Shown piece after piece: positions 3,399-63,099 of a stretch of DNA of 64,000 nt (its first letter is position 1; each line of letters starts with the position of its first letter). Both the position numbers and the translations under genes were made by a program. Below the pieces are notes generated by a model, which did no database searches, was not told the DNA's origin, and saw only the letters and a program-made list of their open reading frames with translations. The DNA is taken from assembly GCA_038065355.1 (NCBI GenBank), contig JBBTRC010000005.1, positions 30,530 to 94,529 of the forward strand. The letters are read 5' to 3'. The stretch is from Patescibacteria group bacterium (GTDB lineage: Bacteria > Patescibacteriota > Minisyncoccia > Phycocordibacterales > UBA918).

Positions 3399-4556
3399 TT
3401 AGAAAACTGGTGTTGCTACGTATGTCAACGTAGCTGTGTAGTCGCTAGCTGCTTCCTGCAAGCCGCCAATTTCTACTTTGTAACCGACACGAGTGGTTCC
3501 TTCTCCCTGTCCGGTGCCATCAGCGGGACCGGTGTGCCGAAACACTTCAACTGGTGACGTGAGAGCCGCAACAAAGCGATCCCCGCCGCTACCTACGTTG
3601 AAAGGATTGGTAAGTCCACTCGTGAGAGTGTCGTCATCTGAAGCAACGCCCCAGTGACCGTACGTATCTTCATCTCCGAGAGTCTCAGATGGCGCTTCCC
3701 AAGCAACGGCAACAGTATCTCCGTTACCGTTTCGGAACGAATCGATATCGGCACCATTGGTTGAGCTGAGTTGCTGGTCTGTGACTACCGTGACGACGAA
3801 ACCGTTGCGGGCGTTCGTTGTCACCGCGAGATCTTGAGCGGCAGTACTGGCTGTGTTGGCAGACAGTTCACCAAACGGAATTGTGGTGGCCGTTGTGGCA
3901 CCTCCGGTCGTGTCAGCTGTGTTGACTGCTTGGCCGCTTGTGACTCCACTCACTGTAAAAGTAAAGATGGTGTCGACAGAAGCGGTAACAGTCACTGAGC
4001 TAAGAATCATGACACGAGTTGAACCCGTGTCTGATGCTCCGGCTGTTGCGTTGATCTCATACGAACCAGCGGCAGGGTTGGTGAGCTGTGCGTTACCAGC
4101 ACCTCCTGAAGTGGCGTTGAGGCCAATTTCAATGGTGGTGGTACCGTTCGTTGGAATCGAGCCTCCGTCACCTGCACAAAACGTGATGGTGAGAGTCGTT
4201 CCTGAAAACGCTGCACTCGCTTGTTCCGAACCCGTACAATCAGCCGCTAACGTGAAATCTGAGGTGGTCGCAACGTCAATGTCGGTGTCATTCACTGAAC
4301 CAACGACGAATGGACCATCTGCAAAATCAAGTGTTATGGTTGACCCGTTTGCTACTCCGGTCGGAGTGGTAAACACGATGGTATGGTCTGACGCAACAGT
4401 CGGCGCTGAATCCGAAAGTGTGTCGCTAAAAGAGCTGACATTAGCAGCTTCCGCAAAGCGGAGTGACGGTAAACCTACTGACCAAAGAAAGATGGCGAGG
4501 CCCACAATCGCTGCTGTGGCTTGGAGCACGGAGAACGTTTGTGACGTTCTGTGCAT
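3399..4556 (-). CDS. Secreted Thr/Gly/Ser-rich beta-rich protein, 385 aa, monocistronic. Paralog of 36482..37636. Candidate major surface structural subunit.
   Basis: Signal peptide. Central ~170 aa near-identical to the 36482..37636 product (SDHTIVFTTPTGVANG...AADCTG...AAFSGTTLTITFCAGDGGSIP). Both end ...TLTY(V/I)ATP(V/T)F. Own hairpin downstream. Confidence 0.7.
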   Translation of the reverse strand: MHRTSQTFSVLQATAAIVGLAIFLWSVGLPSLRFAEAANVSSFSDTLSDSAPTVASDHTIVFTTPTGVANGSTITLDFADGPFVVGSVNDTDIDVATTSDFTLAADCTGSEQASAAFSGTTLTITFCAGDGGSIPTNGTTTIEIGLNATSGGAGNAQLTNPAAGSYEINATAGASDTGSTRVMILSSVTVTASVDTIFTFTVSGVTSGQAVNTADTTGGATTATTIPFGELSANTASTAAQDLAVTTNARNGFVVTVVTDQQLSSTNGADIDSFRNGNGDTVAVAWEAPSETLGDEDTYGHWGVASDDDTLTSGLTNPFNVGSGGDRFVAALTSPVEVFRHTGPADGTGQGEGTTRVGYKVEIGGLQEAASDYTATLTYVATPVF

Positions 4557-4706
4557 ATACTCTACGTTGTATTAGCTCACAGACTTATAGCACGTGGTGT
4601 GTGCTACAACCAAGAAAACTTGTGTCGACATACTGGTCTCCACTCCGGTATGCTGAAAAGACGAACTGTGAACATACGTATTTGGTAACACTCGGCTGAA
4701 GCATCC

Positions 4707-4745
4707 CCGGCACCTTCTCTCGTCACTGCCGAGAGAAGGTGCCGG
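4707..4745 (-). terminator. Perfect 16-bp GC-rich hairpin (ccggcaccttctctcg / cgagagaaggtgccgg, 7-nt loop) downstream of the dockerin gene. No U-tract. Terminator-like or regulatory structure.
   Basis: Exact inverted repeat read directly from the sequence, in the 288-nt intergenic region 4557..4844. Confidence 0.4.
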
Positions 4746-4844
4746 GCAGTAGCATTAAATTGACTACCTCCCAAATATGTACTCCTTCATTGTACGATGC
4801 ACCCCAATCTATCCCTTGCAGTTATGCACAAATCTTTATTCATT

Positions 4845-5978
4845 TTATCCGCTCCAATTAAAAAGAAGAATCGAGAAGTCCTCAAGACTCACCCGACCGT
4901 TCCCGTTAATGTCAGCCGGGGGGTCTGAGTCTCCGCCATTGGTTTGCCACCAAAAAATCAAAATTGAAAAGTCGGTAAGATTAATTTTGCCATCGCGATT
5001 CAAGTCAGAGGGTGTAGTCGCACGACCTTCTATGCCCACAAAAAGCTGCAGGGAGCTGCTGAAACTACTTTGTGACGTGAGTGGCGGCGTACCGGCCACC
5101 GTGCGGGCGCGGAGTGTGTGTTCAGCTATGGATAACTGACTGGTGTTTAGACTAATGCTCCAGCTACCGTTAGCCGCCACGCTGGTTCGCTCAATGACGG
5201 TGCTGTTGTCGACATGTAGCTCAAGGGTGGTGTTGGGAACAGACTGACCAGATACAGTGACAGCCGCTCCTGGAATCACATTTGGGTTCGTGACTCGTAT
5301 CGTAGGCGGTAACAGCACGCCGTTAATATTCGTAATGGCGCCTTGCGTCACATCAAAAGTAGTATTGAGGGTGATCGACCGCGTGCCGCTCGTGTCGGTT
5401 GACCACACTCCAAGGGTGGCAGTTCCGGGCGATGCTTCAGCAGCGAACTCAAACGCGCCGCTACTGTTTGACTGTACTGAGCCGACAGATTCAGTGTCAA
5501 TTAAAAAATTTACAGTTCGCGACGGATAGGCTCTTCCGATAACGTTAATTTGGGTGTCTCCAAGATCACGATTACTACCACCGCCGCCGCCAGAGGAGCC
5601 GCCCGAGGAGCCGCCGCCGCCCGAACCGGCCGGCTCGACTTCACAAATTGCCGAGCAGAAGTCACCGTCGGTGTTGTTACCGTCGTCACATTCTTCTTGG
5701 TGAATTGTTTGCAAAATTCCGTCGCCGCAGTAAGGTCCAAATAAACACGAAACGGTGCACTGCCTACCGGCTATGGTTTGGCTATACACTCCGGTTTCGC
5801 CCGGCACGTCACATTGCTCACCGGGATCAACAATGATATTGCCACAAACACTTAAAGTGAGAGTGGTAGTAGCGGTAAACTGTGCCGCTACCGGTGTGGG
5901 CGTAAAGACTCCTAGCGCGTAAACGCACACCAGGGCTACCACCGCAGAGAATGTACAAAAAATGCTAACCTTTCCCAT
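4845..5978 (-). CDS. Secreted dockerin-containing protein with Myxococcus-type cysteine-rich repeats, a Gly/Ser linker and Ig-like repeats. Paralogous C-terminal region to 32919..34814.
   Basis: 377-aa ORF. Signal peptide. Cys-rich repeats (CGNIIVDPGEQCD...CGDGILQ...EECDDGNNTDGDFCSAIC). Linker GGGGSSGGSSGGGGGS. C-terminal duplicated dockerin-type segment DLNRDGKINLTDFSILIFWW...DINGNGRVSLEDFSILLFNW. Confidence 0.75.
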   Translation of the reverse strand: MGKVSIFCTFSAVVALVCVYALGVFTPTPVAAQFTATTTLTLSVCGNIIVDPGEQCDVPGETGVYSQTIAGRQCTVSCLFGPYCGDGILQTIHQEECDDGNNTDGDFCSAICEVEPAGSGGGGSSGGSSGGGGGSNRDLGDTQINVIGRAYPSRTVNFLIDTESVGSVQSNSSGAFEFAAEASPGTATLGVWSTDTSGTRSITLNTTFDVTQGAITNINGVLLPPTIRVTNPNVIPGAAVTVSGQSVPNTTLELHVDNSTVIERTSVAANGSWSISLNTSQLSIAEHTLRARTVAGTPPLTSQSSFSSSLQLFVGIEGRATTPSDLNRDGKINLTDFSILIFWWQTNGGDSDPPADINGNGRVSLEDFSILLFNWSG

Positions 5979-8966: not shown

Positions 8967-10190
8967 CTATTCATACCGAATCGCGTCCAGCGGATTGAGA
9001 GATCCGGCACGGCGAGCTGGGAAAATGCCGGTGAGGTAGCCAACGGCGGCGGAGAAAAGTGCGATAAAAAGAAGAAAATCAAGCGGGAACGAAAACAGTG
9101 CCACCGCTTGACCGCCAAATTGACTGGCCAAGACGTTAAGAAAAAGGTTCACCGTCACCCCTAAGGTGACGCCGAGCACAATGCCGCTTAGCCCGCCAAG
9201 AAAACCAACAACGATCGACTCGGAAACGAACAAATTTTTTACATCGTTCGGTGACGCGCCGATGGTGCGCATGATGCCGATTTCTTTGGTACGTTCGAGC
9301 AGTGTCACCGTCATGGTGTTAAACATGCCAATCGCGGACACAACGAGCGCAATGCCACCAAACGTGGCGAGTACCACTTGTATTCCTTGAAAAATCTTGG
9401 AGGCCTGTTCGACGGTCTTTGACAACGCGGTAACGCGGTACCCCTTCTCAATCAGCCAATCTTCAACTGTTGCTAAATTTTCATTCGAATCAACGCGCAC
9501 TTGGATGCGCTCAAATTCTTCTATACCGACGTAATTGCGAAGTTCTGGTAGCATCATCATCACATTGAGTACACCTTCTTCTTTAGTAATGCCGCGTACG
9601 GTGTATTCTTTGTCGATCACAATTTCGTTCACAGCGTCGGTCCCGTCATCGGCCGGCACAAGGAGTCGAAACGACACTTTTTGTCCAATGAACGCATCCA
9701 TTTCTTCGTCAGTAATTCCGAACAATTTTAAAATTGCTGGAGACAGCATAACTGAATTCACATCCCCCGCGTCAGCGTCGGTGAACACCTCTCCGGCGAT
9801 AGCAGTCACGCCGGCGTAGCGAAGATACGGCGGTTCGACTCCCTGCACAAAGACGTTTCCAGTGAGACCCTTGTAGGTGACAAGCGCAGGAAAGCGCGCC
9901 AAGGGTGCCGCATCGAGTACCGCTTCGTTGTTTTCAAATTCGGTAATGGTTTCTGGAGTAAGTCGCAGACCTTGCGCGCCGGTTGAGGAAACGCCGAGTG
10001 AAAGCAGAGTCTCTCCAAAGACAATCTGCTCAAGAATAATTTTTTGCAGGCCGAACCCGAGCCCCACCAAGACAACGACCGCACCGGTGCCGACACCCAT
10101 ACCCAAAATCGTCAACCACGTACGCATCGGGTTGGTTTTGAACATACGCGTCGAAAGCTGTGCCAAGTCTTGCACTCTCACACCAACCAT
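8967..10190 (-). CDS. ABC transporter permease, MacB/FtsX family: N-terminal TM, large extracytoplasmic domain, C-terminal FtsX-type three-TM bundle.
   Basis: 407-aa ORF. Topology and C-terminal region (LATFGGIALVVSAIGMFNTMTVTLLERTKEIGIMRTIGASPNDV) are typical of MacB/LolE-type permeases. Confidence 0.8.
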   Translation of the reverse strand: MVGVRVQDLAQLSTRMFKTNPMRTWLTILGMGVGTGAVVVLVGLGFGLQKIILEQIVFGETLLSLGVSSTGAQGLRLTPETITEFENNEAVLDAAPLARFPALVTYKGLTGNVFVQGVEPPYLRYAGVTAIAGEVFTDADAGDVNSVMLSPAILKLFGITDEEMDAFIGQKVSFRLLVPADDGTDAVNEIVIDKEYTVRGITKEEGVLNVMMMLPELRNYVGIEEFERIQVRVDSNENLATVEDWLIEKGYRVTALSKTVEQASKIFQGIQVVLATFGGIALVVSAIGMFNTMTVTLLERTKEIGIMRTIGASPNDVKNLFVSESIVVGFLGGLSGIVLGVTLGVTVNLFLNVLASQFGGQAVALFSFPLDFLLFIALFSAAVGYLTGIFPARRAGSLNPLDAIRYE

Positions 10191-10210: not shown

Positions 10211-11533
10211 TTAACTCTTGTAACTCACATCAACTCCCTGTGCGATTACTTTCTCGAAGTAGCGCGTGATATCGTCTGCCTCTTTCTCATCGAGGCCAAG
10301 ACCGCCCGCCCGTACCCCCTTCATCAATCGTTCATTAAATTCTTCATCCTCAATCACACCGGTCACCCGATCAGCAATCAGCTCGGTAAGATTTTCATCC
10401 TGCTCTTTGTTGAGCTTTACTCGGTGTTGTTGGATCAAGTGTTCGCGTAGTCGTTCTGACAATTTGTGCTGACTAAAAAAGATACCGTCGTTGTCTTTGC
10501 GCGCTCTGAATCGCTTGATATCAAGTGCATTCTCCATCATACGACCGGCGATGGTAGCCATTTTGCGCGCTTCTGCCTCCGGCACCTCGACGCCGCCTTT
10601 TTCTAAAGGCAAGACGAGACTTTTTATGTAAGCGTCGCGGTCGATTTTTCCTTTGATAAACATACCCGAAGCGCGCTCCAGCCGGATCAGCTGGTCGAAA
10701 GTGTAGTCTTGCGTCAAATAGTTGACTAAGCTCTTCACTCGGAGCGTGTCCACTGAGTCGTAGGGGTACAGTCGAGCCAGTTGTTCGAGCTCGGTGACGA
10801 TCGTCTCACCTTCCTGCACTGGCTTGATTTGCTTGCGCTGTGGGTTGACGACTTCACGAACGATGAGGCCGTCCTTGAGGTAGTAGACTCGGTGCGCATA
10901 GCTCAAGTGAGCGGCGTTGTGTGACACCATAATGATAGTACGGCGATCGAAGGTGTTGATTTCATCAATTTTATCCATCACTTGCTGTGTCGAAACAGAG
11001 TCAAGGTTGCCAGTTGGTTCGTCTGCGAGAAGAATCTTGGGGTCGTTTACCATCGAACGCGCCACCGACACGCGTTGTTGTTGACCGCCGGAGAGCATAG
11101 CGGGGATTTTATGCGAAACATGCCCCACGCCAAAACGATCGAGAAGCATCTGGGCGCGACGTTCTCTGGTAGTTTTGTCTACGTCGCAAAAAATCATCGG
11201 TAGCGCTACGTTGTCGAGCACCGAGAGCGATTGAATCAGGTTGAATGACTGAAAAATAATTCCCATCACGAAGCGCTGGAAATACACACGCTCGGCCGGC
11301 GGGTACGAATAGATATCGTCACCACGAATGAGGAGCGTGCCCTCGCCAGGCGGAAGTGAGCCTTGAATGGAATACATGAGGGTCGACTTGCCCGAGCCTG
11401 ATGCGCCGAAAAGAATGATGTACTCACCCTCAAAAATATCAGTGTTCACGCCCGTGAGCGCTTTAAATTCGTTCGACTTCCCCTTATTGTAGATAATCGA
11501 AAGATCCCGACAGACGATAAGCGGCTTGGCCAT
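10211..11533 (-). CDS. ABC transporter ATP-binding protein, MacB/LolD-like, with an unusual ~200-aa C-terminal extension of unknown function.
   Basis: Walker A GASGSGKST, ABC signature LSGGQQQRVSVARS and Walker B ILLADEPTGNLD, all within residues ~20-240. Residues ~240-440 carry no recognisable motif. Confidence 0.85.
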   Translation of the reverse strand: MAKPLIVCRDLSIIYNKGKSNEFKALTGVNTDIFEGEYIILFGASGSGKSTLMYSIQGSLPPGEGTLLIRGDDIYSYPPAERVYFQRFVMGIIFQSFNLIQSLSVLDNVALPMIFCDVDKTTRERRAQMLLDRFGVGHVSHKIPAMLSGGQQQRVSVARSMVNDPKILLADEPTGNLDSVSTQQVMDKIDEINTFDRRTIIMVSHNAAHLSYAHRVYYLKDGLIVREVVNPQRKQIKPVQEGETIVTELEQLARLYPYDSVDTLRVKSLVNYLTQDYTFDQLIRLERASGMFIKGKIDRDAYIKSLVLPLEKGGVEVPEAEARKMATIAGRMMENALDIKRFRARKDNDGIFFSQHKLSERLREHLIQQHRVKLNKEQDENLTELIADRVTGVIEDEEFNERLMKGVRAGGLGLDEKEADDITRYFEKVIAQGVDVSYKS

Positions 11534-11554
11534 TAAATGATGAAATGAGTGTAA

Positions 11555-11607
11555 CGATTATTCAGAATTTACTTCCCAATTCGCCGCCCCTAGGGCGAAT
11601 TGCTGGA
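11555..11607. promoter_or_regulatory. Copy 1 of a ~53-nt conserved non-coding element (CGATTATTCWGAATTTACKTCCCAAT - variable hairpin - ATTGCTGGA), in the leader region of the ABC operon.
   Basis: Near-identical flanks to the copy at 12518..12571. Hairpin AATTCGCC-GCCCCTAG-GGCGAATT. Confidence 0.35.
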
Positions 11608-11654
11608 GGCACTGCCACCGGGTCAATACTTCGTTACTTATAAGTACCCCGTGG

Positions 11655-11683
11655 TATTTATATTATGGCATCAATTGTTGCAA
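11655..11683 (-). promoter_or_regulatory. Possible sigma70-type promoter (TTGCAA-N17-TAAATA on the minus strand) for the ABC operon, overlapping an imperfect palindrome CAATTGTTGCAAATTG.
   Basis: Read by eye; sits between the lipoprotein terminator and the ABC ATPase start. Confidence 0.3.
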
Positions 11684-11702
11684 ATTGATCGACACCTCAT
11701 CC

Positions 11703-11743
11703 ACAGAAAAGGCCGCCGCACGACATACGTCGAGGCGGCGGCC
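11703..11743 (-). terminator. Rho-independent terminator downstream of the lipoprotein gene: GC stem ggccgccgc...gcggcggcc followed by a U-tract on the minus strand.
   Basis: Inverted repeat 11711..11719 / 11735..11743 with ttttctgt following on the minus strand, 50-90 nt after the stop at 11793. Confidence 0.6.
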
Positions 11744-11792: not shown

Positions 11793-12323
11793 CTAAGGAC
11801 GAACGGCGAGAAGACGTTCGTTGGGCCCCCAGCCAAGCTCCCACCGGCCGAGGTGGAGCCCCCAGACGCCGTTCCAGCCACCTAATACAAGCACGTGACG
11901 CTCACCGTTGAAAGTAGCGATACTGCCGAAACAAGCCAGCCAGTACGGTGGGGGACCGAGATCAAACTGGTAACGTGCTTTGGCAATAGTCGCGCCGTAG
12001 GCGATGCATTCGGACGTGTTGGCGGGGCGCAGTCCGTAAGCTTTGATTTCCGCGACCGCATTCTCCGAAGAAATACCGCGGTTGAAGGCGACCGTTACCA
12101 GCTGGGCTTCGTAATCGGCCGTAACGGACTCGACTTTGAAGTTGGACTGGATGTCGGAATCGACAAAATCGTAGTGCCCCGCGTCAATGCGAGCCGCAAG
12201 CGATTGGTTTGCTTCGACGACAACTGGTCGGTCGGAACTGATTGTGGTCGGCTTATCCGCCGAATCACAACCCGTGAGCGACAACGCGAACATGGCGAAA
12301 GCCACCAGAAAACGACTTTTCAT
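11793..12323 (-). CDS. Lipoprotein of unknown function; signal peptide with lipobox LTGC. Start assigned to MKSRF (12323), not the upstream MYGL (12350).
   Basis: Lipobox LSLTGCDS. AAGGAGG Shine-Dalgarno 8 nt upstream of the ATG at 12321..12323. Consensus-like promoter upstream. Confidence 0.65.
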   Translation of the reverse strand: MKSRFLVAFAMFALSLTGCDSADKPTTISSDRPVVVEANQSLAARIDAGHYDFVDSDIQSNFKVESVTADYEAQLVTVAFNRGISSENAVAEIKAYGLRPANTSECIAYGATIAKARYQFDLGPPPYWLACFGSIATFNGERHVLVLGGWNGVWGLHLGRWELGWGPNERLLAVRP

Positions 12324-12382
12324 GTGAATGGCCCTCCTTAGGCCGTACAATTCTTGGCAGGATTGCCCTACTTCTATCTTTC

Positions 12383-12410
12383 ATTATACACAATCTGTAT
12401 AAAAAGTCAA
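12383..12410 (-). promoter_or_regulatory. Near-consensus sigma70-type promoter TTGACT-N16-TATAAT driving the lipoprotein gene.
   Basis: Minus-strand reading ttgactttttatacagattgtgtataat, about 55 nt upstream of the RBS/ATG. Confidence 0.55.
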
Positions 12411-12462
12411 GGTTTCGTGCCAGCCCTCTTTCTTCTTGTATTACCGTTGTACTACGAGCGAC

Positions 12463-12495
12463 TTACCCAGCGATGTTTTTTACCCAGCCGAAGGT
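12463..12495 (-). other. Remnant second copy of the 3' end of the FN3-protein gene. Encodes TFGWVKNIAG-stop, differing from the genuine end (12594..12626) only at synonymous positions.
   Basis: Minus-strand translation of 12463..12495 is T F G W V K N I A G *. The real gene ends ...ESTFGWVKNIAG*. Five nucleotide differences are all third-position and synonymous. The frame upstream of the remnant is closed by a stop. Confidence 0.45.
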
Positions 12496-12517
12496 TAAAT
12501 GAAGAAAGGAGCGGCAG

Positions 12518-12571
12518 CGATTATTCTGAATTTACGTCCCAATCTGCTTTTTCCTAAAGCAGATTGCTGGA
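12518..12571. promoter_or_regulatory. Copy 2 of the ~53-nt conserved element, immediately downstream of the FN3-protein stop codon. Hairpin core differs from copy 1 but still pairs (AATCTGCTTT-TTCCT-AAAGCAGATT).
   Basis: Flanks CGATTATTCTGAATTTACGTCCCAAT and ATTGCTGGA match copy 1. Stems covary. Confidence 0.35.
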
Positions 12572-12593
12572 CGAGAAAGCTCCGAGAGCAGAC

Positions 12594-14099
12594 TTATCCG
12601 GCAATGTTCTTAACCCAGCCGAAGGTACTCTCAAAGTTCTCGATAATGAGGTCGATGATGTTTTTTTCTTGAATCGGCGTGAAGAGTACGAAGTTTTCCG
12701 ATTGGACGTCGTTACCGGCTTCGTCGGTACAGGTGAGGTAGAACTGATAGACCGTCGCCGGTGCAAAATCTACCACCACCTCGACGTGCCGCGTGTTGTA
12801 CTCTAATTGCTCTTTCTCAATGGTAAACGGTTCGGTACCGCCGGCGACACCTTCTTGGTAGGTCATGAGACAGTTGGCTGCTTCGTCAGTGTCCCACTCA
12901 ACAATCGTTTGTATGCGCGACTCTCCGCCTGGAAAAAGAGTTGATTCGTTGGTGACGTTGGTGATGATAGGCGCGGCAATGTCGCGAACGGTAATAAATT
13001 GTATCGGTTGGCTACGGATACGGTCGCCGCTTGAATTTTCGGCCGTCACAAAGGCAACGTAGCGGGTGCCGAGCGTAAGATCAGCGAGGCGCATCTGATG
13101 CGTGGTGGCGAGCGTCGGACGTCCGACCGAGCTTTCAGCGCCGGTCGTTTGGTCTTGGTACTCAACGAGCGCCTTCGCCGGCACGGTGGTGTCCCAGGCA
13201 AGCGTGGCGGCGTTTTCTTCTACCTTTACCACTCGCAGGTTGCGGATTTCCGGAGCCGATGCTTTGGTTTTAAATGTGTAGTTGCGGCTCTCGCCGGTAA
13301 TGCCAAAACCGTCGGTCGATTTTACCTTGAAGCTATATTCGGTGAACGCATCGAGTCCGATCAGTTGTATTTCATGATCGGTAGTATCGGCACCAGTTGA
13401 GACTTGTGAAAACGCGTAGCTTGAACCGTCAAAGCCGTTGGTTGGTGAAAAAACTACTTCAGAACTGGCTTCACGGTCGGTTGTCCATTTGATGGTGGCG
13501 GTGGTAGTCTCCGGTAGCACCGTCGGCGGACCAACAATGGTCAAATCCTCAGTAATACCTTGCACAGCTTTGATGGTTTCGTTAATAATTTCCTGCAACT
13601 TTTGAGGGTCGGTAATTTCTTTTATTTGTTCGACGATCTCCTCGGTTTTAATTTCTTCCGTGGTGGCTGTTTGACTGCTCTGTCCTTGTCCTTCCGCTTG
13701 GCCGCTTCCCTCACCTTCTCCGGTTTGCGGGGTGCCTGATGTCTGCACTTTGTAGTCGGCCGAAATGCCTTGATTCCCTTCTTCGTCGGCCGACACGACA
13801 CGGAAGTAGTAGACGCGACCGGGCTCCAAAGCACCGAGCGTAATCGAGTGTGAGGTGCGTTCTGCGACCGGTATGCGCACGATGCCGTAGTCTGGTTGCA
13901 AGCCGTAGTTCACTGATGAGTCGGCATCTTCGTCGGTGTCCCAGGTAATCGTCACGCTGGTTTCGCTGACTTCTTTCACTTCCACGTTGGAAATTTCCGG
14001 AGCTTCTTGATCGCTCGACTGCGCCAAGGTCAAAAGCGGCAACAAAAATAAGAGCGTAACGAGGCGGACTGTGATTGATAAGGACATTTTTTTAATCAT
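12594..14099 (-). CDS. Secreted protein with two fibronectin type III-like domains and a Gly/Glu/Gln-rich linker. Last gene of the giant-protein transcription unit.
   Basis: 501-aa ORF. Signal peptide. FN3-like hallmarks (APEISNVEVKEVSETSVTITWDTDE..., YYFRVVSADEEGN, second module with TEYSFKVKSTDGFG). Start lies 9 nt after the giant ORF stop. Confidence 0.75.
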   Translation of the reverse strand: MIKKMSLSITVRLVTLLFLLPLLTLAQSSDQEAPEISNVEVKEVSETSVTITWDTDEDADSSVNYGLQPDYGIVRIPVAERTSHSITLGALEPGRVYYFRVVSADEEGNQGISADYKVQTSGTPQTGEGEGSGQAEGQGQSSQTATTEEIKTEEIVEQIKEITDPQKLQEIINETIKAVQGITEDLTIVGPPTVLPETTTATIKWTTDREASSEVVFSPTNGFDGSSYAFSQVSTGADTTDHEIQLIGLDAFTEYSFKVKSTDGFGITGESRNYTFKTKASAPEIRNLRVVKVEENAATLAWDTTVPAKALVEYQDQTTGAESSVGRPTLATTHQMRLADLTLGTRYVAFVTAENSSGDRIRSQPIQFITVRDIAAPIITNVTNESTLFPGGESRIQTIVEWDTDEAANCLMTYQEGVAGGTEPFTIEKEQLEYNTRHVEVVVDFAPATVYQFYLTCTDEAGNDVQSENFVLFTPIQEKNIIDLIIENFESTFGWVKNIAG

Positions 14100-14108: not shown

Positions 14109-17100
14109 TTATGGGCCAACCGGCGTAAAGACGTTCTGACCTTGGTGCGGAGCGCTGTTGACGCCAAATGGAACAGCAATGCCCCAGTACACGGTGTCTG
14201 CAACCGGCGGCGTCGTGGTTGTTGGCTTAGACAGATCGACGTTGAGAACTACCGGGGTGGTACTAGAGAGCAAGTTACAGCTGGCACCACAGCCGGAATA
14301 CGTGAAGGTTGAAGTGGCAAACTTCTGCTTTGTCGACGGGATGGTGGAGCTGTAGCCGTCGGTCATGTCGGTACCTTCAACTTCGATATTTATTTCAACG
14401 TTACCTTGGTTTTCAATCGAGGTGGTGGCATTCACCGAGCCGGTGTCTTCCGTTACGGCGACCGAGCCGTAATCTATCGCGCCGTCAATATCAATCGCGC
14501 GCAGTGTATTGAGTTCTTGTCCAATGGATGTTCCAAAATCATAACCACCGCCGGTGTCTTCCACCTCAAGGAACGCAAACCACTCCTCGCCGTCGTAGGC
14601 ACTGCCAGTATCGGTTGGGTCGGCGTGGAAGTAAATATCAGCTTGGCAAGACACGGTGCAACTGTCGCCGGCGCAATCGGTAAATGTACAAGCCGAGCCA
14701 CCGACGCTGTAACAGTTGTTGTTATCGACAGCACAGCTTGCCCCTCCTACGACGCCGCCGCGGTAGAACGTACCGGTAGCGTGAGAGAGGTCAGTGTAGC
14801 CGTTGAGATCCGTTACGGTACCGGTCGCTACGACCGCTGTGGTGGTGCCAGGAAGCAAAGAGATCGCCTCGCCGTTGTTGAGAGTAATGCTGTCAACTAT
14901 CGGGTCAAAGCGAAGGGACATTTTTGCTACTTGCAAGTATGTATCATAGAACGTACCGTTGTCAGTGACGCGGAAACAGAGATTTTCATCAATCACATTG
15001 GATGTTGGCGTGATGACATATTCGAGTTCGGTGTATTCATTTTGGTCAACATCAATGGCACTCGTGGTATTGGAAGGATCTTCGCGCACCTCGCCGGCAG
15101 TGAAGGCGCCTTCGGCATTGACGAGAAGATCGGCAACGCTTGCGCTGTCTGTCACATTATTGGAAGTCTGCATACAGACAGCCGAAGTACCACAGCTGGC
15201 TTGTGGTGGCACCGGAGCGTAGTCTGCTTCATCGACGGCTTCGCAACTCGGCGCGGTATCCTGGGACGCAAATTCAAGCCGAAATTCTTGACCGCCAATT
15301 GCCAGTCCGCTGTTTTCAACGACTACACGTAGGCGCGCCGTGTCGGTCACACTGAAGGTCGCGGCGGTGTTTTGTGCTGCGGCGAAGGATGCTCCTCCAT
15401 CAGCCTGTTCGGCTCCAAAGAGTATGGTTGGTTCGGTCGCGAGGGTCGGTCGTGAGCTAAAGCTGTCAAAGCCTCCTTGATTAAACCAGTAAGTGAAACC
15501 GATACCGCCCGACGTGTACGAGCTGTCAGTCGCCGAGGTGGTCGCGACAAGTGAATGAGAAGCGTCGTAGAGTGATAGGAAGAGTGTATCGTCGGTACCC
15601 CAATCGAGTTCAAACTCATACCAACCGGTAGTGAAAGATACATCGGCGGTCGCGAGTGTGGCGCCAGATGATTCATTTTCAGTTACATCTTCCACGACTG
15701 CGATATGGTCAGTGCCAGGCAACTCAACACAGACCGCGTAGTTGTCGTTTGGCACGTTGGTACCTTGAACGGCAAATTTTGTACATGTCTCGTCGGAAGT
15801 GCCAGCCGTGTCGACGTACTGCCAAAAGCGAATTGTTTCTCCCTGACTGACGGTTTGACCAAATCTGTAAATACCGCCGAGATTCGCTCGACCAGTGGTG
15901 TTGCCGCTGTTGTCGAGACCATAGGTGCCGTCGTAGGCAAACGAGGTGCCTGTGTTGAAAAGACTTGTCTGTCCGCTGTATTCCGAAATATCATCATCTT
16001 CAAAGTCGTCGGCCGCTATAAACACGTCGGTGCTTGAACTGGTAGTGGTAGCGGTTGGGTTGTTGTAATACATGTAGACAGTTGCGGTTTCCTCGGCCGG
16101 TAGTGTCGCAACTTGTACCCACACTTCAGCGATCGTGCTCGCGGTCGTGGAGCCGATCCAGAACGGAAGAGTGGTAGTACCGCTCTCATCGGTAAAGCGA
16201 AGATCGCCAAAATCAGCTTGCATGTCGGAGTCATATTCCACGTACAATTGCACTGCAGCGTTGGTGTAGTTCGTGGCATCAGCGTTTACGACTCGCACTT
16301 GTTTCCGTGCGTTCCAGGCCGCGTCATACCACTCGCTGTCAGGCACTCCCAGTCCGCCGTCGTCATTCCGCCAACGGTAGCCTGTCTGCTGGGTGAGGAG
16401 ACAAGCACTGTCGCTCCAGCGCACCGACCCGCAGTCATCAACTCCGTCGACATCAAAGGCTTCACCGTCGAGGTTACCGGTATGGCTGACAAACGTCCAG
16501 GCGTTGCTGGTTGAACCAGTCATAGTGATGTTCGCTCCACTAATAGCAGTGGTGGTGGCGAAGCGGTTGCCGGTGTGGACCATCGACGCGTTGGCGTTTA
16601 GTGTCGTTGAGGAAAGCGTGAGCAAGGTGCCGCCGTCTACCGCGAGTTCAAAATCTCCGTATGAAAGAGAAGTAATGGCTGGAGTGCCGGATAGTGAAAG
16701 TCCGTTGGCACCAAGATTTCGAAAGATATAACGCTGTGCATTCAGCGTACCACCCGCCACATTGACACTGTAAGTACCACTGCCTTGATTGGTGATGGTG
16801 GTTTCATTTCCACTCTCGCCAACAACTGCCAACGAACCGCTCAAAAGTGTAGTTGTAGCATTCGCTTCGTGTTGCACTGTGACCACTCGCTCGCTACCAA
16901 GAAGACTCACACCATCGAAGTCGGTGGCATAGCTCCAATATTCAGAAGTGGTACCGATAGTGAAGTCGCCATAAATATTCAACGCTCCGTCGACCGCATT
17001 GTGATCTTGAGAGTAGAGCGAGGCGTTCGCCGCGACGGTTGAAGTCGCTCTCGAGTTCCACATGCGAATGTCACTGGCGGCACCGATAGTGAGGCCGTCG

Positions 17101-20100
17101 TACACGTCGCCGCCCGTAGTTTTGGTGTTGAGCGAATAGGCGTTCGCACCATCAAGGGCTAGAGCACTGCCAGTCCAAGTCGTCGCGGCTCCGCCGACAC
17201 TGTTTAAGAACACACCTTCCACTTTTAATGTAGCTCCAGACTGTAAAGTGAAGCTACTCGCGCTCGCCAACGTAAAGTTGTTGGTAGTCGTCGCGGAAGC
17301 CGCCAGCGTGTAGCCCCCGGTCGGTGCACCAATTTGCACGTTGTAGAACGAACTCACGCCTGGATCAATGAATTCCCCACTATCGGAAGAGTTGAACAAC
17401 ACAGTATTTGAAGCGTGAGAGAAGGTGCCGCCACTCGCATCAAAACTGCCGCCGACAGACAGTGTGCCTGATGCCAGCGTGACGTTTCCGTCGGTAATAA
17501 AGACGCTGTCGAGGAAGGTAATATCTTCATCAAGCATGGTGTAAGCGCCTCCGCCAGCGAAGTTGACCGCGTAGAGGTCGGAGCTCGATGCCAAGAGTGT
17601 GGCCGTGGTGGCGTTGATGAGTTTCAAGTCAGCGGTGTTGTGGATGATAGACCCACCAGTATTTGCGAAGTCACCGCCGACAGTGAGACGGCCAGACGGT
17701 AGAGTGATGGTACCGCTTTCGACGGTAAAGACACCGGTCGTGGTGGCGTTGGTGTCGCCCCAGGTGTAGGCGGCGCCGGAAAATGTGACGCCGGCTAGAT
17801 CAGATCCCCCTTCTGTCACAATGCCTGATCCGGTAAAGAGCGCGTGGCCACCATTGGCATCAAAGGTGCCTCCAGTCTGTACCAGCGATCCGGCAAAAGT
17901 AGATGTGCCGATCGGGAACGTGAGTGCACCCGCACTTTTACGCAGATTGCCATCTACGGTGAGCGTGTTGTCCGAAATAACCCAACTTCCCGAACCAGTA
18001 AAATCAAGATGGTGAAAAGAGTGTTCATTCACGTCGATAGTTCGAGCGGCGCCGGTTGTGGTAAACGTCGTCGTGCCATTGCTACTGACAAAATCGGCGT
18101 TGTTACCAAGAATCATACTGCCGCCGACACTGAGAGTTTCTGTACCTTGTCCAGTCCAGAGCGCATCAGCGTGAAGCTCAAGTGTTCCGTCATAGTCGGC
18201 TCCGGCGCCACCGCCAGCCACCGTTACGTTTCCACTCGGCGCAAATTCTTTGGCGTCCCACACAATGAGTTTTCGATTGGCCGGCAAGATGAGTGTGTCG
18301 GTACCGGCATTGACGGCGGTGAATGGAATATCTGCGTCGTCTCCAGAGTCCCATACCGCGAGATCGGCAATGGTAATAGGGTTCACGTTTTCATGGCGCA
18401 CAATCACTCGATTTTCGTAGATATCCAAATCGCCAATGTTTGAGATTGGTTCTTTGGTCACAGTGGCACCCTCTGACGAAGTGCCGCTTATGTACACGAC
18501 AAGTGAGTCGGTGGTACCGTACGAGACATTGGAAATACTGTACGCGCCGGTCGTTGCGTTGCAACTAGCGGTGTACGACGTGATACCGGCCACTGTAAGC
18601 ACGATCACGTTGCTACTGCCGTCGCACACATTTGAAACGGTCGTTCCTTCGTCGCTGTAGACTGCGCCCGCGACCGTGATGAGTGCGGCTGAGTCATCCC
18701 ACGCCACATAACCTGGGTCTCCGCCCGGATCAACGTCATTGGCTTCTCCGTCAATGTCACCGTAGTGATTGGCAAAGCGCCACGCACTGACCGTCGTGCC
18801 GGTGGCGGTGACATTGAATGCACTGCCGACGCCATCGAGTGCAAAGCGGTTTTGTGTGAAGTTCTTGGCTGGGTTATTGGTGATGACCGAGCCGCCGACC
18901 GTTATCGCCGAACCACCGGTTTGCGATACTCCGAAATCCCCGTTTGAAAGTGTAGTCACCTGTGGCAAACCAGTGAAGATGATTCCGTCACTGCCCGTAT
19001 CGCGCACTTCGTAATAGCGAAGCGACGTTGAGGCGGTGCCGCCGATGGTGAGGGCATACGTGCCAGCACCTTGATTTTGTAAGGTCGTTGATGCCGACGA
19101 AACTCCGTAGACTGCGAGCGCGCCGCCGGTGTAGAGCGCGCTAGCTCCAGGGGCAAAGTACACATCAGTTTGGCGCTCGCTACCACTAAGATTAGTACCG
19201 TCAAAATCAGTGCTGTAACTCCAATGATCGGTACCGGTTGATTTTCGGTAAGCTCCCCAAATGTACAGATCACCATTTTGCGCCCCGTGATCTTGCGAGT
19301 AAAGCGACGCAGTGCTTTCTACATCATACGTACCAGCACTCGAGTTCCACATGCGAATTTGTGTGGTGTCGCCAATCGACAAAGTGTCGTAGGAATCGGT
19401 GGTAGTCGCGGTGTTGATACTGTAGTTACCACCGCCATAGAGACGCAAGGTGGCGCCAGTCCAGGTAGTGGCGGCTCCTCCTTCATCATTTACAAAGGTG
19501 CCACCAACCGCCAACACTTGCCCACTACCGGCGGTGAAAGTGTTGGCATTTAGCAGTCTCCAGGCGACGGTCGCAGTGGCGTGCTCGGTTATGGTAATGT
19601 CACCAGTCGTGTTTATGACGACATTGCCAAAACTACTCGTACCGGCGGCAATTATTTGCGTACCCGCGCCGTCAAATGTGAGCGTGCCATTGTTGCTCGT
19701 GAACACACCGTTATTTTCGTAATTGCCAGCCACCGTGAAGCTTGCAGTATCGCTCGCGCCGAGAGTACCATTGCTTTCGATGAAAACATCTCCATTCACA
19801 TCAAGCGCCGGATCACTGGTCGAGAGGTTAAAAGTCGTAGCGGCCGCACCGCCGATAGAAAGGTCATTGTCGACGATGATGCCAAGACCAGTGGCGGTGT
19901 AGGTAGGTGAACCAACAGCAGCGTTTAGTTCTAAATTATAGTACCGAGTTGAAAGCACGTTAGCCCCAGCGCCACTGTAGCGAATAGTGCTGGTGTCTTC
20001 TAAGAGTGTGCCGTTCTCAATAAATACTGTGCCCGTACCGGCTAAATCCCAAGCAGTACCACCGGCGTCGAGGAAGTGAGCGGGAGCGATAGTAAGTCGC

Positions 20101-23100
20101 CCACTTATGGTCGTGGTACTTGTAAATACCGGCGTAGTGGTGCCAATATCTATGCCATCACCGAGTTGTAAGTTGTAGAAAGTCCAAGGGCTCGTGCCGC
20201 CGAGAGTGTTGGTGTTGGCAATCGTCGTCGTACCAGCGCCAAAGGAAAGTATGCCGTTACCGCTTAATGAGCCGTTTTGAAGCGTAATGTCACCAGTACC
20301 GGTCACCGTGCCGGCAGTAAGCGTGAGGTCGCCATTGGTCACAATGTCTGCCCCCACATTCCAACTGCCCCCACTTCCGTTGAATTCAAGCTCGTTGAAT
20401 GCAATCGTACTGCTCGCGGTGATGCTCTTGCCGGAACTGGTAGCGTTCATATGCACCGTCGTACTGGCCGCGTCAAAGGTGGCGCCGTTTTCAAGCACGA
20501 GGCGGCCGCCAATAGTGAGGGTGCTGGTGCTATAGGCGTTCATAGTCGCATTCTCACCTAGGTACAATGTGCCGTCATAACTATTGGCGGCCGCGTTTGC
20601 TGCCAAAGTAACAACCCCATTCGGAGTAAACGTAGATGACGCAAAGACAAAAAGTTCAGTTCCAGCCAGCGTAGTGAGTGTGTTGGGGTTTGAAGTAGTG
20701 GCGGCCAAATAGCGCAGGTCGGTGTCGTTTGAAAAATCATACGTAGCCAAGTTGGCAATGGTAAGTGCTTCGGTATCTTCGTTCCGCACTATCACGCGGT
20801 TGACGTAAATATCCAAGTCGGTAATATCAGCGGTCGGTGTGCGGGTCACTACGCTACCCCGCTCATCACCAGAGGCGTCATCAAGATAGATGGTGAGCGT
20901 CGGGTCACCCACTATCACAATTCCCCCGATGCTATAGGTGCCGTCGACGTTGCTACAACTGCCAGTGTAGGATGCTCCGTTTTCGACTACCACCCGCACA
21001 ACCTGATCGACTCCGTCACAAGTGCCACCGACAAGTGGAGTGGTGCCCGCGTCGCTGTAAACCGTTCCGGCAACCGTAATGGCAAGCGAACTGTCATCAA
21101 AACGGACCGAACCAGGGTCGCCAGTGTCGTTGTCAAAATTTTCTCCATACAAATTGCCGCTTCCCTCTCTAAACCACCAGAATGAGGTTGGGGCGCCGTC
21201 AGTTTGGGCTACGTTAGTAGCAGAAATTGCCGTCGTAGTGGCAAAGTTCACATTGAAAATCTGCTTTGCCGGATTGGCATTAATGGTAGTTGAGGAGAGT
21301 GTGATCGCGGTGCCGCCACCTGCCGCGACCGTGTAGGAACCATCACGTAAATTCGACACATAGGTACCTCCAAGTAGAGATAGGCCAGAGAGACCGAGGT
21401 CAGTAAATTCGTAATATTGTGCCGTGGTGGTTCCGCCTGTCACCGCTACCGTGTAAGTACCAGTACTTTGATTTCTGATTGTGGTTGATGCGGTACTAGT
21501 ACCTGTGATGGAGAGCGTGCTATCGGTGAATGACGCAGTCGCATCAGAGGCAAAGCGTACGTCGATCGCTCGCTCGCTTCCACCTGCGAGCGAGGCGCCA
21601 TCAAAGTCGGTGGCGTAACTCCAGTGCTCAGTGCCGCTTGTCCGCGTGTAATCACCGAAAATGTAGAGGTCGCCGTCTACCGCTCCGTGATCTTGCGAGT
21701 AGAGTGCGCCGCCGCTTTGGGTAGAGTAGGTCGTTGCCGACGAGTACCACATCGCCACCTGTGTACTCGTGCCGACGGAAATGGTGTGATAGGCATCGCC
21801 GTTATCAACTTTAGAGTTGAGACTGTAGGAACCTGATCGGAGCGCGAGCGTCGCACCAGTCCAAGTAGTCGATGCGCCGCCGACGTTGTTGGTAAAAGTT
21901 GCTCCGACAGAAAGAGTTTGGCTCGGTGCGAGGGTAAAATCACTGGCGTTTGTTAAAGCAAAGCTGTTGGTAGTAGTCGCAGGCGCAGCTATCGTCCAGC
22001 CACCCGTCATACTATTGAAAGTAACGTTGTAGAGAGCAGAGTTACCAAAATCAACGATCTCGCCCGCATCGGTTGAATTAAAGAGGATGGTTCCAGAACC
22101 CGGCAACACCGAGGCGGCGTTTTGGTACGAGCCGCCAAGCGCGAGGGTGGCGCTTGGCAAAGAAAGCGTGCCTTGTGCGATGAAAAGGTCACCAGTCATG
22201 GTGGCAGTGGTGTCACTAAACGACCACGAACCAGAGCCATCAAATTGGACAGAATGATACGTCGAGCCGCCGGTTGTGAGAACTTCCGCAACGCTACTAT
22301 AAAACAAGAGAGTGCCGGTGCCGCCAGCAAAACTGCCGCCACCGTCAATGAGGGTACCGCCAATAGCAAACACGCCGGCTGGAAAGTTCAACGTCCCTTG
22401 CAAGACTCGAACGTCGTTCGTGCTGGTAGCGTTGATATCAAGTACAGTCCAACTGCCACCACCGTTGAAGGTGAGGTTGTTGGCCACATTGGTGAAGGTG
22501 CCGCCAGCAAAGGTGAGTGTCTCGGCGGCGTTTGAAGTGAAGTACAGGGTTCCGTTATTGTGTGCAAAGGTGCCGCTTGTTACTAGGAACGATCCGCCGA
22601 CGGTGGTCGTGGCAGTCGGAAGCGTAACCGTACCGGCCGTTACTTGTACATCGTTGCTCGCGTGGAGCGTCGGTTCTGTAAATGACCAACTACCGCCACT
22701 GCCATTGAAGGTAAGATCGTAGAATGCATCGCCGGCAGTGGTAATCGCGTGCGTAGAACTCGTGGCGGCAAACCTCACTTCGCCCGAGCGAGAAACGAAA
22801 TTGTTTTGGTTGTTCCATCGTCCATACACGGTGATATCGAAGTTGCTGGTTGAGGCGTCGAGCGTGTCGTTGGCACCAATTGTGATCGACTCGGCTGTTA
22901 CTGTGCCGGCCAGAGTGACTATTTTTGAAGTACCATCGACCACTACGTGACCGACATTCTGTTTCACTACATTCTGATCATTCCAAGTTGATGCTGTATT
23001 GCCGTCAAAAGTGGTGGTACCGATTCCCGTCCAAAAACCGCTAACGCCTGTGACTACGTTGCCTGCAACTGTTATCGCAGTCGTGCCACGTGCGAGGGTG

Positions 23101-34814: not shown

Positions 34815-34858
34815 TGCCTATATATTGTACCGTTCCCGAATGGCCAAAAACGAATGTA

Positions 34859-62904: not shown

Positions 62905-63099
62905 GAATGAGAAAACGAGCGCGTAGCGCGACTATTTCGAATAACCTAGAAATTAAAGAGAGTTTACTCGACTATAATTTCGGAAATACTCTTGTGGTGT
63001 TATACAGGCGCCTCGGCAGATTCGACCTACCGAGGGAGAATCTGCCGGCGGCGAGCTGTAGAGTTATTCTAACTTACTGCGTAGTAAAGTAAACTTTTA

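Follow-up and report, generated by a model that had tools for sequence, protein, structure and literature searches.

A gene for an FN3-domain surface protein, located in a 64-kb stretch of a groundwater Patescibacteria genome (the whole stretch analysed, hereafter the window), is followed 131 nt downstream by a second copy of its own 3' end, promoterless and start-less. Where did this displaced gene end come from, and what process joined it to the structured element that separates it from the functional terminus? The genomes of Patescibacteria (CPR) are tiny, and how genes are rearranged or regulated in them is poorly understood. All genes at the locus are carried by the minus strand, and its features are collected in Table 1.

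Table 1. Features of the FN3-ABC locus, in the direction of transcription (window coordinates).
Feature	Position	Strand	Remarks
FN3-domain surface protein gene	12594..14099	(-)	501 aa, ends ...ENFESTFGWVKNIAG*; ORF and translation
Copy A, 41 nt	12586..12626	(-)	Last 10 codons + TAA + GTCTGCTC; functional gene terminus, attL-like
Linker, 12 nt	12574..12585	(-)	TCGGAGCTTTCT; between copy A and E2
E2, 78 nt	12496..12573	(-)	Structured leader-like element; orphan, abuts copy B and not an ATG
Copy B, 40 nt	12456..12495	(-)	TFGWVKNIAG* + GTCGCTC; displaced FN3 terminus, no start codon, attR-like
Sigma-70-type promoter	12383..12410	(-)	TTGACT-16-TATAAT, 11/12 match; drives inserted lipoprotein-like gene
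Lipoprotein-like gene, 176 aa	11793..12323	(-)	SD AAGGAGG; module translocated into FN3-ABC spacer
Intrinsic terminator of 176-aa gene	11707..11743	(-)	GGCCGCCGC...GCGGCGGCC TTTT
Ancestral leaderless ABC promoter region	11654..11706	(-)	CTGTGGATGAGG...TGCCATAAT ATAAATAC; kept, now apart from ATG
44-nt insert	11610..11653	(-)	Came with E1 between ancestral promoter and ABC start
E1	11534..11609	(-)	Second element copy, other tail subfamily than E2; abuts ABC ATPase ATG directly
ABC transporter ATPase, 440 aa	10211..11533	(-)	Pfam
FtsX/MacB permease	8967..10190	(-)	Pfam; after ABC ATPase

The FN3 protein, to which Pfam assigns fn3 / Pur_ac_phosph_N, has the C-terminus ...STFGWVKNIAG. All 120 homologues (72-82% identity) end in STFGWV(K/Q)NIxx, and no part of the family is more conserved than the C-terminus; TFGWVKNIxx, which an earlier note on this DNA had suggested seeking on other genes, is thus the native end of the FN3 family. 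Copy A (12626..12594) reads ACC TTC GGC TGG GTT AAG AAC ATT GCC GGA TAA, and copy B (12495..12463) reads ACC TTC GGC TGG GTA AAA AAC ATC GCT GGG TAA, so that 28 of the 33 positions are identical. These sequences bear out the recurrence of the gene end at 12463..12495, with five synonymous third-position changes, that the earlier note had reported. Its extent for the repeat, ten codons and the stop, was right as far as it went, but the real span is 41 nt including 8 nt of 3' flank: the 41/40-nt repeat runs past the stop by 7-8 nt through TAAGTC(T)GCTC (local alignment score 50; 0/2000 shuffles). A degenerate pattern for the TFGWVKNIAG peptide matched only twice in the 64 kb, at A and at B, and none of 100 shuffles held any match. 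The junction reads identically in an independent Logan assembly (L001) and is therefore not an assembly artefact. The frame upstream of the second copy is closed, as had been noted, with a TAA 22 codons upstream and no ATG, GTG or TTG thereafter. Read-through of the FN3 stop into copy B was considered and rejected: beyond the stop the FN3 frame is open for 39 codons across E2, but copy B lies in another frame (131-nt offset), and in L048, an assembly of another species described below, a stop comes at once.

Between the two copies the earlier note had seen a conserved hairpin, with a second copy elsewhere. Both are real, but this is not just a hairpin: element E is a leader-like element of 77-78 nt that as a rule abuts a start codon. 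In E2 an outer helix (12573-12569 / 12539-12535) encloses an inner one formed by the hairpin arms (12566-12556 / 12550-12540), followed by a conserved tail, GTAAATTCAGAATAATCG...CTTCATTTA; the tail of E is near-invariant. The two copies in the window score 94.7 and 93.7 bits with a covariance model. Compensatory double changes occur at 11 of the 16 pairs, paired cells amount to 91.5% as against 24-55% in slid controls, and the covariation score was reached by none of 500 shuffles. E is a structured cis-acting RNA, its pairs backed by compensatory changes across homologues. Rfam 15 yielded a single tRNA in the window at the gathering threshold and, at E <= 10, nothing over E1 or E2; the element, structured and leader-like, had not been catalogued before. 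Its distance to the start codon is 0-1 nt at the ABC gene of the window and, in other genomes, at efp, rpiB-rpe and ftsX, and 3 nt at rpsR; several E sites are translation genes (efp, rpsF, rpsR), and in some places E is also found orphan and antisense. At E2 the ACC of copy B stands exactly in the ATG position and in register. A plus-strand ORF over E2 (12499..12672, 57 aa) was judged spurious; at E1 its frame stops after 3 codons.

E has no terminal inverted repeats, and its matches in viral contigs are chance matches only (<= 13 bits). No flanking direct repeats were found at the 10 E copies outside FN3 spacers with flanks long enough, so that the duplication belongs to the FN3 site, and E insertion in general does not bring it about. 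A transposon or MITE with a target-site duplication (short, identical, 2-15 bp) was set aside, the repeat here being 38-41 nt and diverged; the earlier note was right that this is no fresh target-site duplication.

The arrangement in the window is derived. At about 22 orthologous loci (among them 17 GTDB species loci and the closest relatives, FN3 identity 80-82%) the FN3 stop is followed by 51-66 nt, or by other inserts, and then by a leaderless ABC gene, with neither E nor remnant. The absence of both from relatives indicates that the window carries a derived insertion, and supports the earlier suggestion of an insertion into the gene end. Synteny is kept in all relatives (giant protein - FN3 - ABC - FtsX - Tad-like), and in them unrelated insertions cluster in the FN3-ABC spacer, a hot spot with gaps from 56 to 2001 nt. 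In the window, the ancestral promoter region (11654..11706) matches, column by column, the corresponding TG(T/G)GGAT..TGYCATAAT-N6-8-ATG stretches in 16 relatives. Homologues of the 176-aa lipoprotein-like gene lie elsewhere, between ruvA and rpsT, and in L043-L046 they are preceded by the same promoter and 5'UTR architecture. The 44-nt extension before E1 has no similarity to the FN3 terminus (p = 0.47-0.86), and the 12-nt linker none of significance to other spacers, being weakly like that of L042. Over ABC+FtsX the window is about equally distant from many loci (0.85-0.87). A donor-type arrangement, FN3 - short spacer - E - ATG(ABC), was not found among the best ABC homologues; the searches turned up JACKGF01-type arrays.

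What distinguishes copy B from an ordinary dead remnant is the kind of change it carries. All five differences (GTT/GTA, AAG/AAA, ATT/ATC, GCC/GCT, GGA/GGG) are synonymous, at third positions, and only 20 of the 90 single-base changes possible in the ten codons are synonymous. The probability of five synonymous changes in five is 5e-4 with drift in both copies and 0.006 with drift in B alone. Of about 9 synonymous sites 5 differ between the copies, which amounts to saturation; at that rate some 9 non-synonymous and some 6 flank substitutions are expected, and none is seen, the 8-nt non-coding 3' flanks being alike except for one indel. Copy B has therefore not been drifting neutrally since its split from copy A, and the claim that the remnant stems from a homologous coding sequence under selection holds even if only B is allowed to drift. 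The GGC and the 3' flank are common to A and B and absent from relatives L038, L039 and L042. Codons of these relatives gave no signal as to which terminus, A or B, is native, with ten codons and saturated synonymous sites to go by; nor is there a compositional break across the junction (GC3 0.55-0.64 for FN3, ABC and neighbours alike).

The same join exists in another species, represented by three assemblies (L048, JACKGF010000001.1; L047; L058). Here the FN3 end is followed by a 33-nt spacer and E, and right behind E stands a copy of the FN3 terminus native to the genome in question, with 4, 3 and 2 terminus copies in L048, L047 and L058, respectively. Gene-end remnants beside other copies of the element, for which the earlier note had proposed a check, are thus present. 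In these genomes CATTTA, the end of E, runs into TTCGG or ATCTTCGG, and in the window into ACCTTCGG. On both partners the three junctions lie no more than 3 nt apart, with ACC, TTC and ATC as first codons, and the repeat counted from TTCGG is 38 nt in both the window and the L048-type genome despite stop codons at different positions. Within this species the join is seen with two different E variants; the four termini of L048 are identical (38/38), although the adjacent E copies are only 76% identical. L047 and L048 contain perfect 148-nt tandem units. The number of repeat units varies between the assemblies of this species, although differing copy numbers of a 148-nt tandem repeat in metagenome assemblies could be partly assembly artefacts.

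Over ABC+FtsX the loci nearest to L048 are L004 and L003 (0.91/0.89), both with plain junctions, so that the L048 lineage is not sister to that of the window. The L048 spacer behind the native terminus resembles the TGGGGATAT box behind FN3 in L003 (15/18, p = 0.006), and behind the last copy of the terminus the spacer opens as in L004; it thus appears that two different versions of this region have been strung together. The array then continues with an ancestral-type spacer and leaderless ABC promoter, not with E-ATG. Since the join recurs in a non-sister species and with variable copy number, the best reading is that it reflects repeatable recombination, not a random scar.

We therefore put about even chances on a recurrent, site-preferring recombination in which a homologous terminus with E displaces the resident gene end, followed by unequal crossing-over. 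In this model the 131-bp interval would be a recombination joint, concatenating two homologous versions of the path from the FN3 end into the downstream spacer. The upstream version would bring the working terminus (copy A), the linker and a complete E, which in its source presumably served as the 5' leader running into the ATG of the next gene; the downstream version would begin at FN3 codon -10, as the displaced copy B, and run on into the resident spacer. The join itself falls precisely where E ends at its 3' side, and in FN3 at the Thr/Phe codons of ...S-T-F-G-W-V. Judged by layout, the joint resembles attL - insert - attR, with the gene terminus forming the 38-41-nt direct repeat. One of the two termini would come from a closely related strain or species where it was a working FN3 end, which would explain both the purely synonymous divergence and the conserved 3' flank. 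The preferred site may be due to a recombinase or nuclease acting in trans, or to joining guided by short homology. Neither the 90-nt insert, which has no ORF, nor, by Pfam, the ~35 ORFs of the window yielded an integrase, transposase or reverse transcriptase, and inspection of the repeat by eye revealed no palindromic 11-6-11 layout of dif/Xer or attC character. Once two termini are present, unequal crossing-over could add units or remove them cleanly, and as any terminus copy can become the real gene end, coding capacity would be maintained. The proposal in the earlier note, that the element or a cassette carrying it was inserted or recombined into the 3' end of an ancestral gene and possibly brought a replacement terminus, is in essence supported by the derived state, the recurrence and the synonymous pattern. 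One may also speculate, with small probability, that E is a movable 5'-leader module with a processing or recombination point at its exact 3' boundary, and that it is joined repeatedly into the conserved FGWV-coding sequence without a classical integrase. E could be cut precisely at its 3' end, freeing a downstream mRNA that starts with AUG, and the substrate for joining could then be FN3 mRNA with E at its end, or else a DNA break at the E boundary.

Several other explanations deserve weighing. The three junctions could derive from one ancient joint, changed by ACC to ATC and a 3-nt deletion and spread by homologous recombination, in which case the argument from independent recurrence is weaker. 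We think it unlikely, though well worth keeping in view, that a single ancient composite of FN3 end, E and FN3 end was kept in a few lineages by concerted evolution, every copy staying translatable through unequal crossing-over and gene conversion among the termini, lost scarlessly in most relatives and perhaps passed on by homologous recombination. With ACC/ATC and a 3-nt gap as their sole differences, the junctions fit common descent, the identity of the L048 termini beside the diverged E copies looks like homogenisation, assemblies with 2, 3 and 4 copies indicate that expansion and contraction occur, and recombination between the repeats would restore an exact plain junction. Such a history, however, needs many independent losses, as L004/L003 and the nearest relatives of the window are plain; the spacers between terminus and E (12 nt and 33 nt) are unrelated in the two genomes; and the synonymous saturation of A and B in the window precludes recent homogenisation, yet no non-synonymous change has accumulated. 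A one-off scar, left by a homology-facilitated illegitimate or other illegitimate join with DNA of a related strain and without site preference, would account for the synonymous divergence and the displaced terminus, would suit a spacer that is an insertion hot spot, and would follow a mechanism documented in other bacteria (PMC5361080). It is nevertheless improbable, because a like join (E boundary 0-2 nt from the ATG position, codon -10/-11, 38-nt repeat) is found in a non-sister species and with two E variants, and random breakpoints would not coincide three times.

An in-situ tandem duplication of the segment from the FN3 end through E, with neutral decay of the useless copy, seems very improbable. 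The joint of the end of E to the start of the FN3 terminus does have the topology of a tandem duplication, and 148-nt tandem units exist in L047/L048; but the P of about 0.006 and the missing non-synonymous and flank changes reject neutral decay. Moreover, the tail subtype of E2 is that of the L048 copies and unlike that of E1, which rules out E1 and E2 as a pair duplicated in situ, and the ancestral-type spacer and leaderless promoter behind the L048 array mean that a unit was inserted there, not simply duplicated. Less credible still is that copy B is expressed, with E2 as a translation leader that starts decoding after itself and yields a selected peptide of 10-12 residues from the FN3 C-terminus. 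Copy B begins in frame at the very position of the ATG behind other E copies, and both genomes keep its peptide, which comes from the family's best-conserved part. Yet it lacks ATG, GTG or TTG, its first codon varies among the three junctions, the conserved non-coding flank is left unexplained, and we know of no AUG-independent initiation in bacteria. Diversity-generating retroelements are common in Patescibacteria and target gene 3' ends; on such a reading copy B would be the template repeat and copy A the variable region. The mismatches (pairs T/A, G/A, T/C, C/T and A/G, with A in copy B at 2/5 and in copy A at 1/5), which in such a system would be confined to adenines of the template, refute it. 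The differences also leave the protein unchanged, the repeat is 41 nt long, and no reverse transcriptase was found in the 64 kb; we give this reading practically no chance.

Taken with recurrent recombination as the leading reading, the locus shows a conserved surface-apparatus operon with an intergenic hot spot for cassette turnover, in which an uncatalogued leader element was recently placed before genes that are leaderless in relatives. Repeatedly, E sits directly against a second copy of a gene end at a single exact point, and the resulting arrays differ from one population to another. Should a dedicated mechanism make the join, it would amount to a minimal, integrase-less gene-end displacement; if none does, the locus offers a clean natural case of purifying selection readable from a 'dead' 33-nt remnant. 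The speculative variant, if true, would be a new and possibly RNA-linked way to spread regulatory leaders and duplicate gene termini. In this phylum initiation occurs mostly on leaderless mRNAs, and our literature search on leaderless translation in Patescibacteria found no paper in the library searched; E is a concrete candidate for the study of leadered translation in such organisms.

How does this joint compare with known systems? Gene 3' ends can serve as attB, as in the case of e14/phage 21 in icd of E. coli, and CIMEs by definition lack a recombinase, which is then required in trans. Integrative elements that use a protein-gene 3' end as attB and carry a replacement terminus, integrase-less CIMEs and tandem accretion have been described (Guedon et al. 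2017, PMC5704250). As in these, direct repeats of 41/40 nt (12626-12586, 12495-12456) hold the terminus, the FN3 ORF is intact via the proximal repeat, the distal one holds a displaced gene end that may differ synonymously, one site is used in different genomes (L047/L048/L058 and the window), and tandem units are possible. Unlike them, the insert is only 90-110 nt, with no integrase found in it or in the window; all that can be recognised in it is an RNA-leader-like element, which in other places serves as an ordinary 5' UTR, and the spacer beside the terminus looks like ordinary FN3-ABC intergenic DNA.

C-terminal displacement with orphan 3' ends is known from Rhs, CDI and T6SS effector loci, where homology-facilitated illegitimate recombination (HFIR) was proposed (Kirchberger et al. 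2017, PMC5361080, citing Jackson 2009, de Vries & Wackernagel 2002). There, too, incoming homologous DNA replaces the 3' part, the old end is pushed downstream without a promoter, and arrays can build up; copy B is such an old 3' end retained downstream of a new 3' region. The arbitrary microhomology breakpoints of HFIR are not seen, the three junctions lying within 3 nt and the breakpoint being the same in independent cases. Both termini here encode the same peptide, only ten codons are retained, and there is no diversification, toxin or immunity gene. Plain expansion and contraction of tandem repeats, by unequal crossing-over or slippage, matches the perfect 148-nt units of L047/L048 and the 2, 3 or 4 copies among assemblies, but leaves the first joint and the synonymous divergence in the window unexplained. 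E itself, finally, resembles cis-regulatory 5' leader RNAs, such as the ribosomal-protein leaders in Rfam, in being a hairpin with a single-stranded tail before start codons. It differs from known leaders in preceding unrelated genes (ABC, ftsX, rpiB-rpe), in matching nothing in Rfam 15, and in being newly inserted, in some genomes, between a leaderless promoter and its ATG.

The last ten codons and stop of the FN3 gene (12626..12594, copy A) are repeated at 12495..12463 (copy B), with 28 of 33 positions identical and all five differences being synonymous third-position changes, as the earlier note had described. A degenerate pattern for the encoded peptide matched only these two copies in the 64 kb searched and had no match in 100 shuffles. 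The repeat extends beyond the stop codon (TAAGTCTGCTC in copy A, TAAGTC-GCTC in copy B), reaching 41 and 40 nt, respectively. Copy B has no start codon and a closed frame upstream, consistent with its description as a remnant, and the junction is identical in the independent Logan assembly L001. The ten codons allow 90 single-base changes, of which only 20 are synonymous; the probability that all five would be so is 5e-4 under drift of both copies and 0.006 under drift of the remnant alone. At the synonymous-site rate, copy B should carry ~9 non-synonymous changes and ~6 substitutions in its 8-nt flank; it carries none of either, with a single flank indel. Copy B is therefore not a neutral fossil over the time since the copies separated.

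Features of the duplicated gene end, its surroundings and a distant relative of element E
Feature	Coordinates	Strand	Basis or remarks
FN3-domain protein gene (secreted, 501 aa, C-terminal end ...IIENFESTFGWVKNIAG, stop)	12594..14099	-	ORF, translation, Pfam
Linker, 12 nt	between copy A and E2	-	sequence
E2, 78 nt	12573..12496	-	downstream of copy A plus 12 nt
Strong sigma-70-type promoter, then 176-aa lipoprotein-like gene led by a Shine-Dalgarno sequence (SD), then terminator	3' of copy B		
E1, 75% identical to E2	11609..11534	-	adjoins ATG of ABC ATPase gene
ABC-transporter ATPase gene	10211..11533	-	Pfam
Distant E relative abutting ATG of M48 peptidase gene	63047..62905	-	hairpin 63047-63014, AGGCGCCTGTATAA, tail ...AAATAGTCGCGCTACGCGCTCGTTTTCTCATTC; 16 bits with model

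Between the two copies, where a hairpin element had been noted, lies E2, a copy of the structured element E. A pattern applied to JGI metagenomes, together with covariance-model searches, yielded further copies. Among eleven copies, 11 of the 16 hairpin pairs show compensatory changes and 91.5% of cells pair, versus 24-55% with the partner slid; compensating changes also separate the hairpins of E1 and E2. The 3' tail (TAAATTC-NN-AATAATCG...CTCATTTCTTCATTTA) is almost invariant, and Rfam 15 holds no family matching E. The element occurs directly upstream of efp in four contigs, and upstream of an rpiB-rpe fusion, ftsX (1 nt), rpsR (3 nt) and rpsF (24 nt), with the genes confirmed by Pfam. One further copy is an orphan, and another is antisense to its neighbours. 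The antisense copy (L035, 11108-11187 (+)) sits between two co-directional minus-strand genes: the stop codon of one directly precedes it, and the other begins 18 nt further on. E is thus not in every case a sense leader.

At most gene starts in the window (for example 3284, 32855, 34814 and 42731), a TATAAT-like box lies 6-8 nt before the ATG and an SD is lacking; leaderless mRNAs therefore appear to predominate in this organism, and the 176-aa gene, with the SD AAGGAGG, is an exception. E looks like a portable 5' leader of ~77 nt in otherwise leaderless organisms, abutting the ATG of efp, rpsR, rpiB-rpe, ftsX and ABC genes in different Patescibacteria, and it has been installed ahead of genes whose counterparts in relatives are leaderless. 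In the window, the region downstream of the 176-aa gene terminator matches the leaderless ABC promoter of 16 relatives column by column (TGTGGATGAG...TGCCATAAT-N8); this ancestral promoter (11654-11706 (-)) is intact, but an insertion of 44 nt plus E1 now lies precisely between it and the ATG. The ftsX gene of the relative L039 has a matching architecture (promoter, N8, E-like, ATG), and its leader is resembled by that of the M48 peptidase gene.

When E2 and E1 are aligned, ...CATTTA/ACC TTC GGC of copy B coincides with ...CATTTA/ATG GCC after E1, such that the displaced terminus begins, in frame, at the usual start-codon position. Homologues of the 176-aa gene (58% identical; L043-L046) lie between ruvA and rpsT in other genomes and have the same promoter and 5' UTR, which identifies this gene as a translocated module; the unit (11793-12410 (-)) brought its own promoter, 5' UTR hairpin, SD and terminator into the FN3-ABC spacer.

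The comparison with relatives that the earlier note had called for shows a plain junction. The FN3 protein is strongly conserved (72-82% identity in Paceibacteria/Kaiserbacteria/Nomurabacteria-type MAGs), with STFGWV(K/Q)NIxx as the native end of the family. The order giant protein - FN3 - ABC - FtsX - Tad-like is kept in 17 species-representative loci and in the closest relatives (L038, L039-41, L042, L049, L057), inspected over +/-3-10 kb around each homologue. Their FN3-ABC spacers range from 56 to ~2000 nt, and none contains E or a second FN3 terminus; the window arrangement is thus derived. In several relatives (L007, L009, L010, L013, L014, L017/L050, L051) a different conserved structured element lies just 3' of the FN3 stop. 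Its first hairpin, a 14-17-bp inverted repeat, takes in the last codons and the stop; two more hairpins follow, with AGG(T/A)GGG at the end. L017/L050 have two copies of it and L051 has one. The giant ORF of the window (5531 aa, 14109-30704 (-)), of DUF2341 type in relatives, has internal repeats of ~2.3-2.4 kb (D3, D6, D8), and with its cohesin/dockerin, Ig-like, sortase and Tad-like neighbours looks like a cell-surface apparatus. Two paralogous pairs (3399-5978 and 32919-37636 (-)), each a dockerin-containing protein and a 384/385-aa protein, share 70-72% DNA identity over 160-300 nt (repeat families D1, D2).

The decisive comparative result is the recurrence of the join in another species, represented by L048 (Ca. 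Nomurabacteria JACKGF010000001.1, found via the best ABC homologue, P0126, 87%), L047 and L058. There, a 33-nt spacer separates the native terminus (TTCGGTTGGGTTAAGAATATCAGCGGAGGAGGTTAG, FGWVKNISGGG and stop) from an E copy, which ends ...CTCATTTA and is joined straight to another terminus copy. L048 has two of these 148-nt units, L047 one and L058 none. Next comes a second E variant (76% identical), whose end, ...GTTCATTTA/ATC TTCGG..., leads directly into the last terminus copy; beyond that lie a spacer of ancestral type and the leaderless promoter of the ABC gene. Terminus copies number 4, 3 and 2, as counted from short-read assemblies, and those of L048 are all identical to its native terminus. 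The repeat measures 38 nt from TTCGG in the window and in L048 alike, despite differing stop-codon positions, and the tail subtype CGCTNCCGCTC is common to E2 and the L048 E copies but not E1. The earlier note's inference, that the remnant comes from a homologous coding sequence under selection and that the element or a cassette recombined into a gene 3' end, is essentially borne out. Gene-end remnants do accompany E in this second species, whereas flanking direct repeats were found at none of the 10 E copies outside FN3 spacers with testable flanks. An 83-nt tandem repeat (three units in L048, 2523-2798; two in L047, 2618-2781; two in L058) lies inside an E hairpin; within it are an SD formed from the hairpin loop (GGAAGGGG) and a hydrophobic ORF of 18 aa (MSKIFYSIGFLTAFGFTF, stop). 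Upstream of ftsX (L048, 4417-4440) there are also E 5' halves truncated at GGAAGG. The sequences suggest that the E loop is a rearrangement hot spot.

We give about an even chance to a recurrent, site-preferring displacement, in which 'FN3 terminus - short spacer - E' would be joined repeatably to codon -10/-11 of a resident FN3 gene, with the topology attL - insert - attR and the gene terminus as the repeat. Two versions of the FN3-ABC intergenic region would thereby be concatenated, the upstream one stopping where E would meet the next ATG. In L048, the native terminus is followed by a spacer resembling the TGGGGATAT box downstream of FN3 in L003 (15/18, p = 0.006), and the spacer beyond the last copy starts like that of L004, which suggests such a concatenation. 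For the window, synonymous-only divergence and a conserved flank would be expected if, prior to the join, one terminus was the working FN3 end of a close relative. The same pattern would be expected if unequal crossing-over lets every copy take over as the working end, an option made plausible by the polymorphism of two, three and four copies in the short-read assemblies.

An ancient origin with concerted evolution, with which common descent of all three junctions is compatible, seems to us rather unlikely. L048 is nearest to L004 and L003 (0.91 and 0.89 identity over ABC+FtsX), both with plain junctions of 56-66 nt, and the window is about equidistant (0.85-0.87) from many loci, so the two carriers do not form sister lineages. 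Each remaining rival is, in our judgement, highly improbable. A random illegitimate scar does not fit, as the recurring joints lie no more than 3 nt apart on both partners. The substitution pattern, the differing subtypes of E1 and E2, and the L048 array, which leads into an ancestral spacer rather than into E-ATG, lead us to reject in-situ tandem duplication with decay. For a diversity-generating retroelement the mismatch pattern is wrong and no reverse transcriptase was found in the 64-kb window, which excludes it.

Among known processes, the nearest are integration at the 3' ends of genes, where a replacement terminus is brought in, including integrase-less CIME derivatives with tandem accretion (PMC5704250), and C-terminal displacement through homology-facilitated illegitimate recombination (PMC5361080). 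The FN3 case departs from both: the insert is only ~90-110 nt and what it carries is a leader RNA element, no recombinase is found in it or elsewhere in the 64-kb window, and one and the same peptide is encoded by the displaced and the new terminus. The locus would thus couple gene-terminus displacement, or att-like duplication, to an RNA element outside Rfam.
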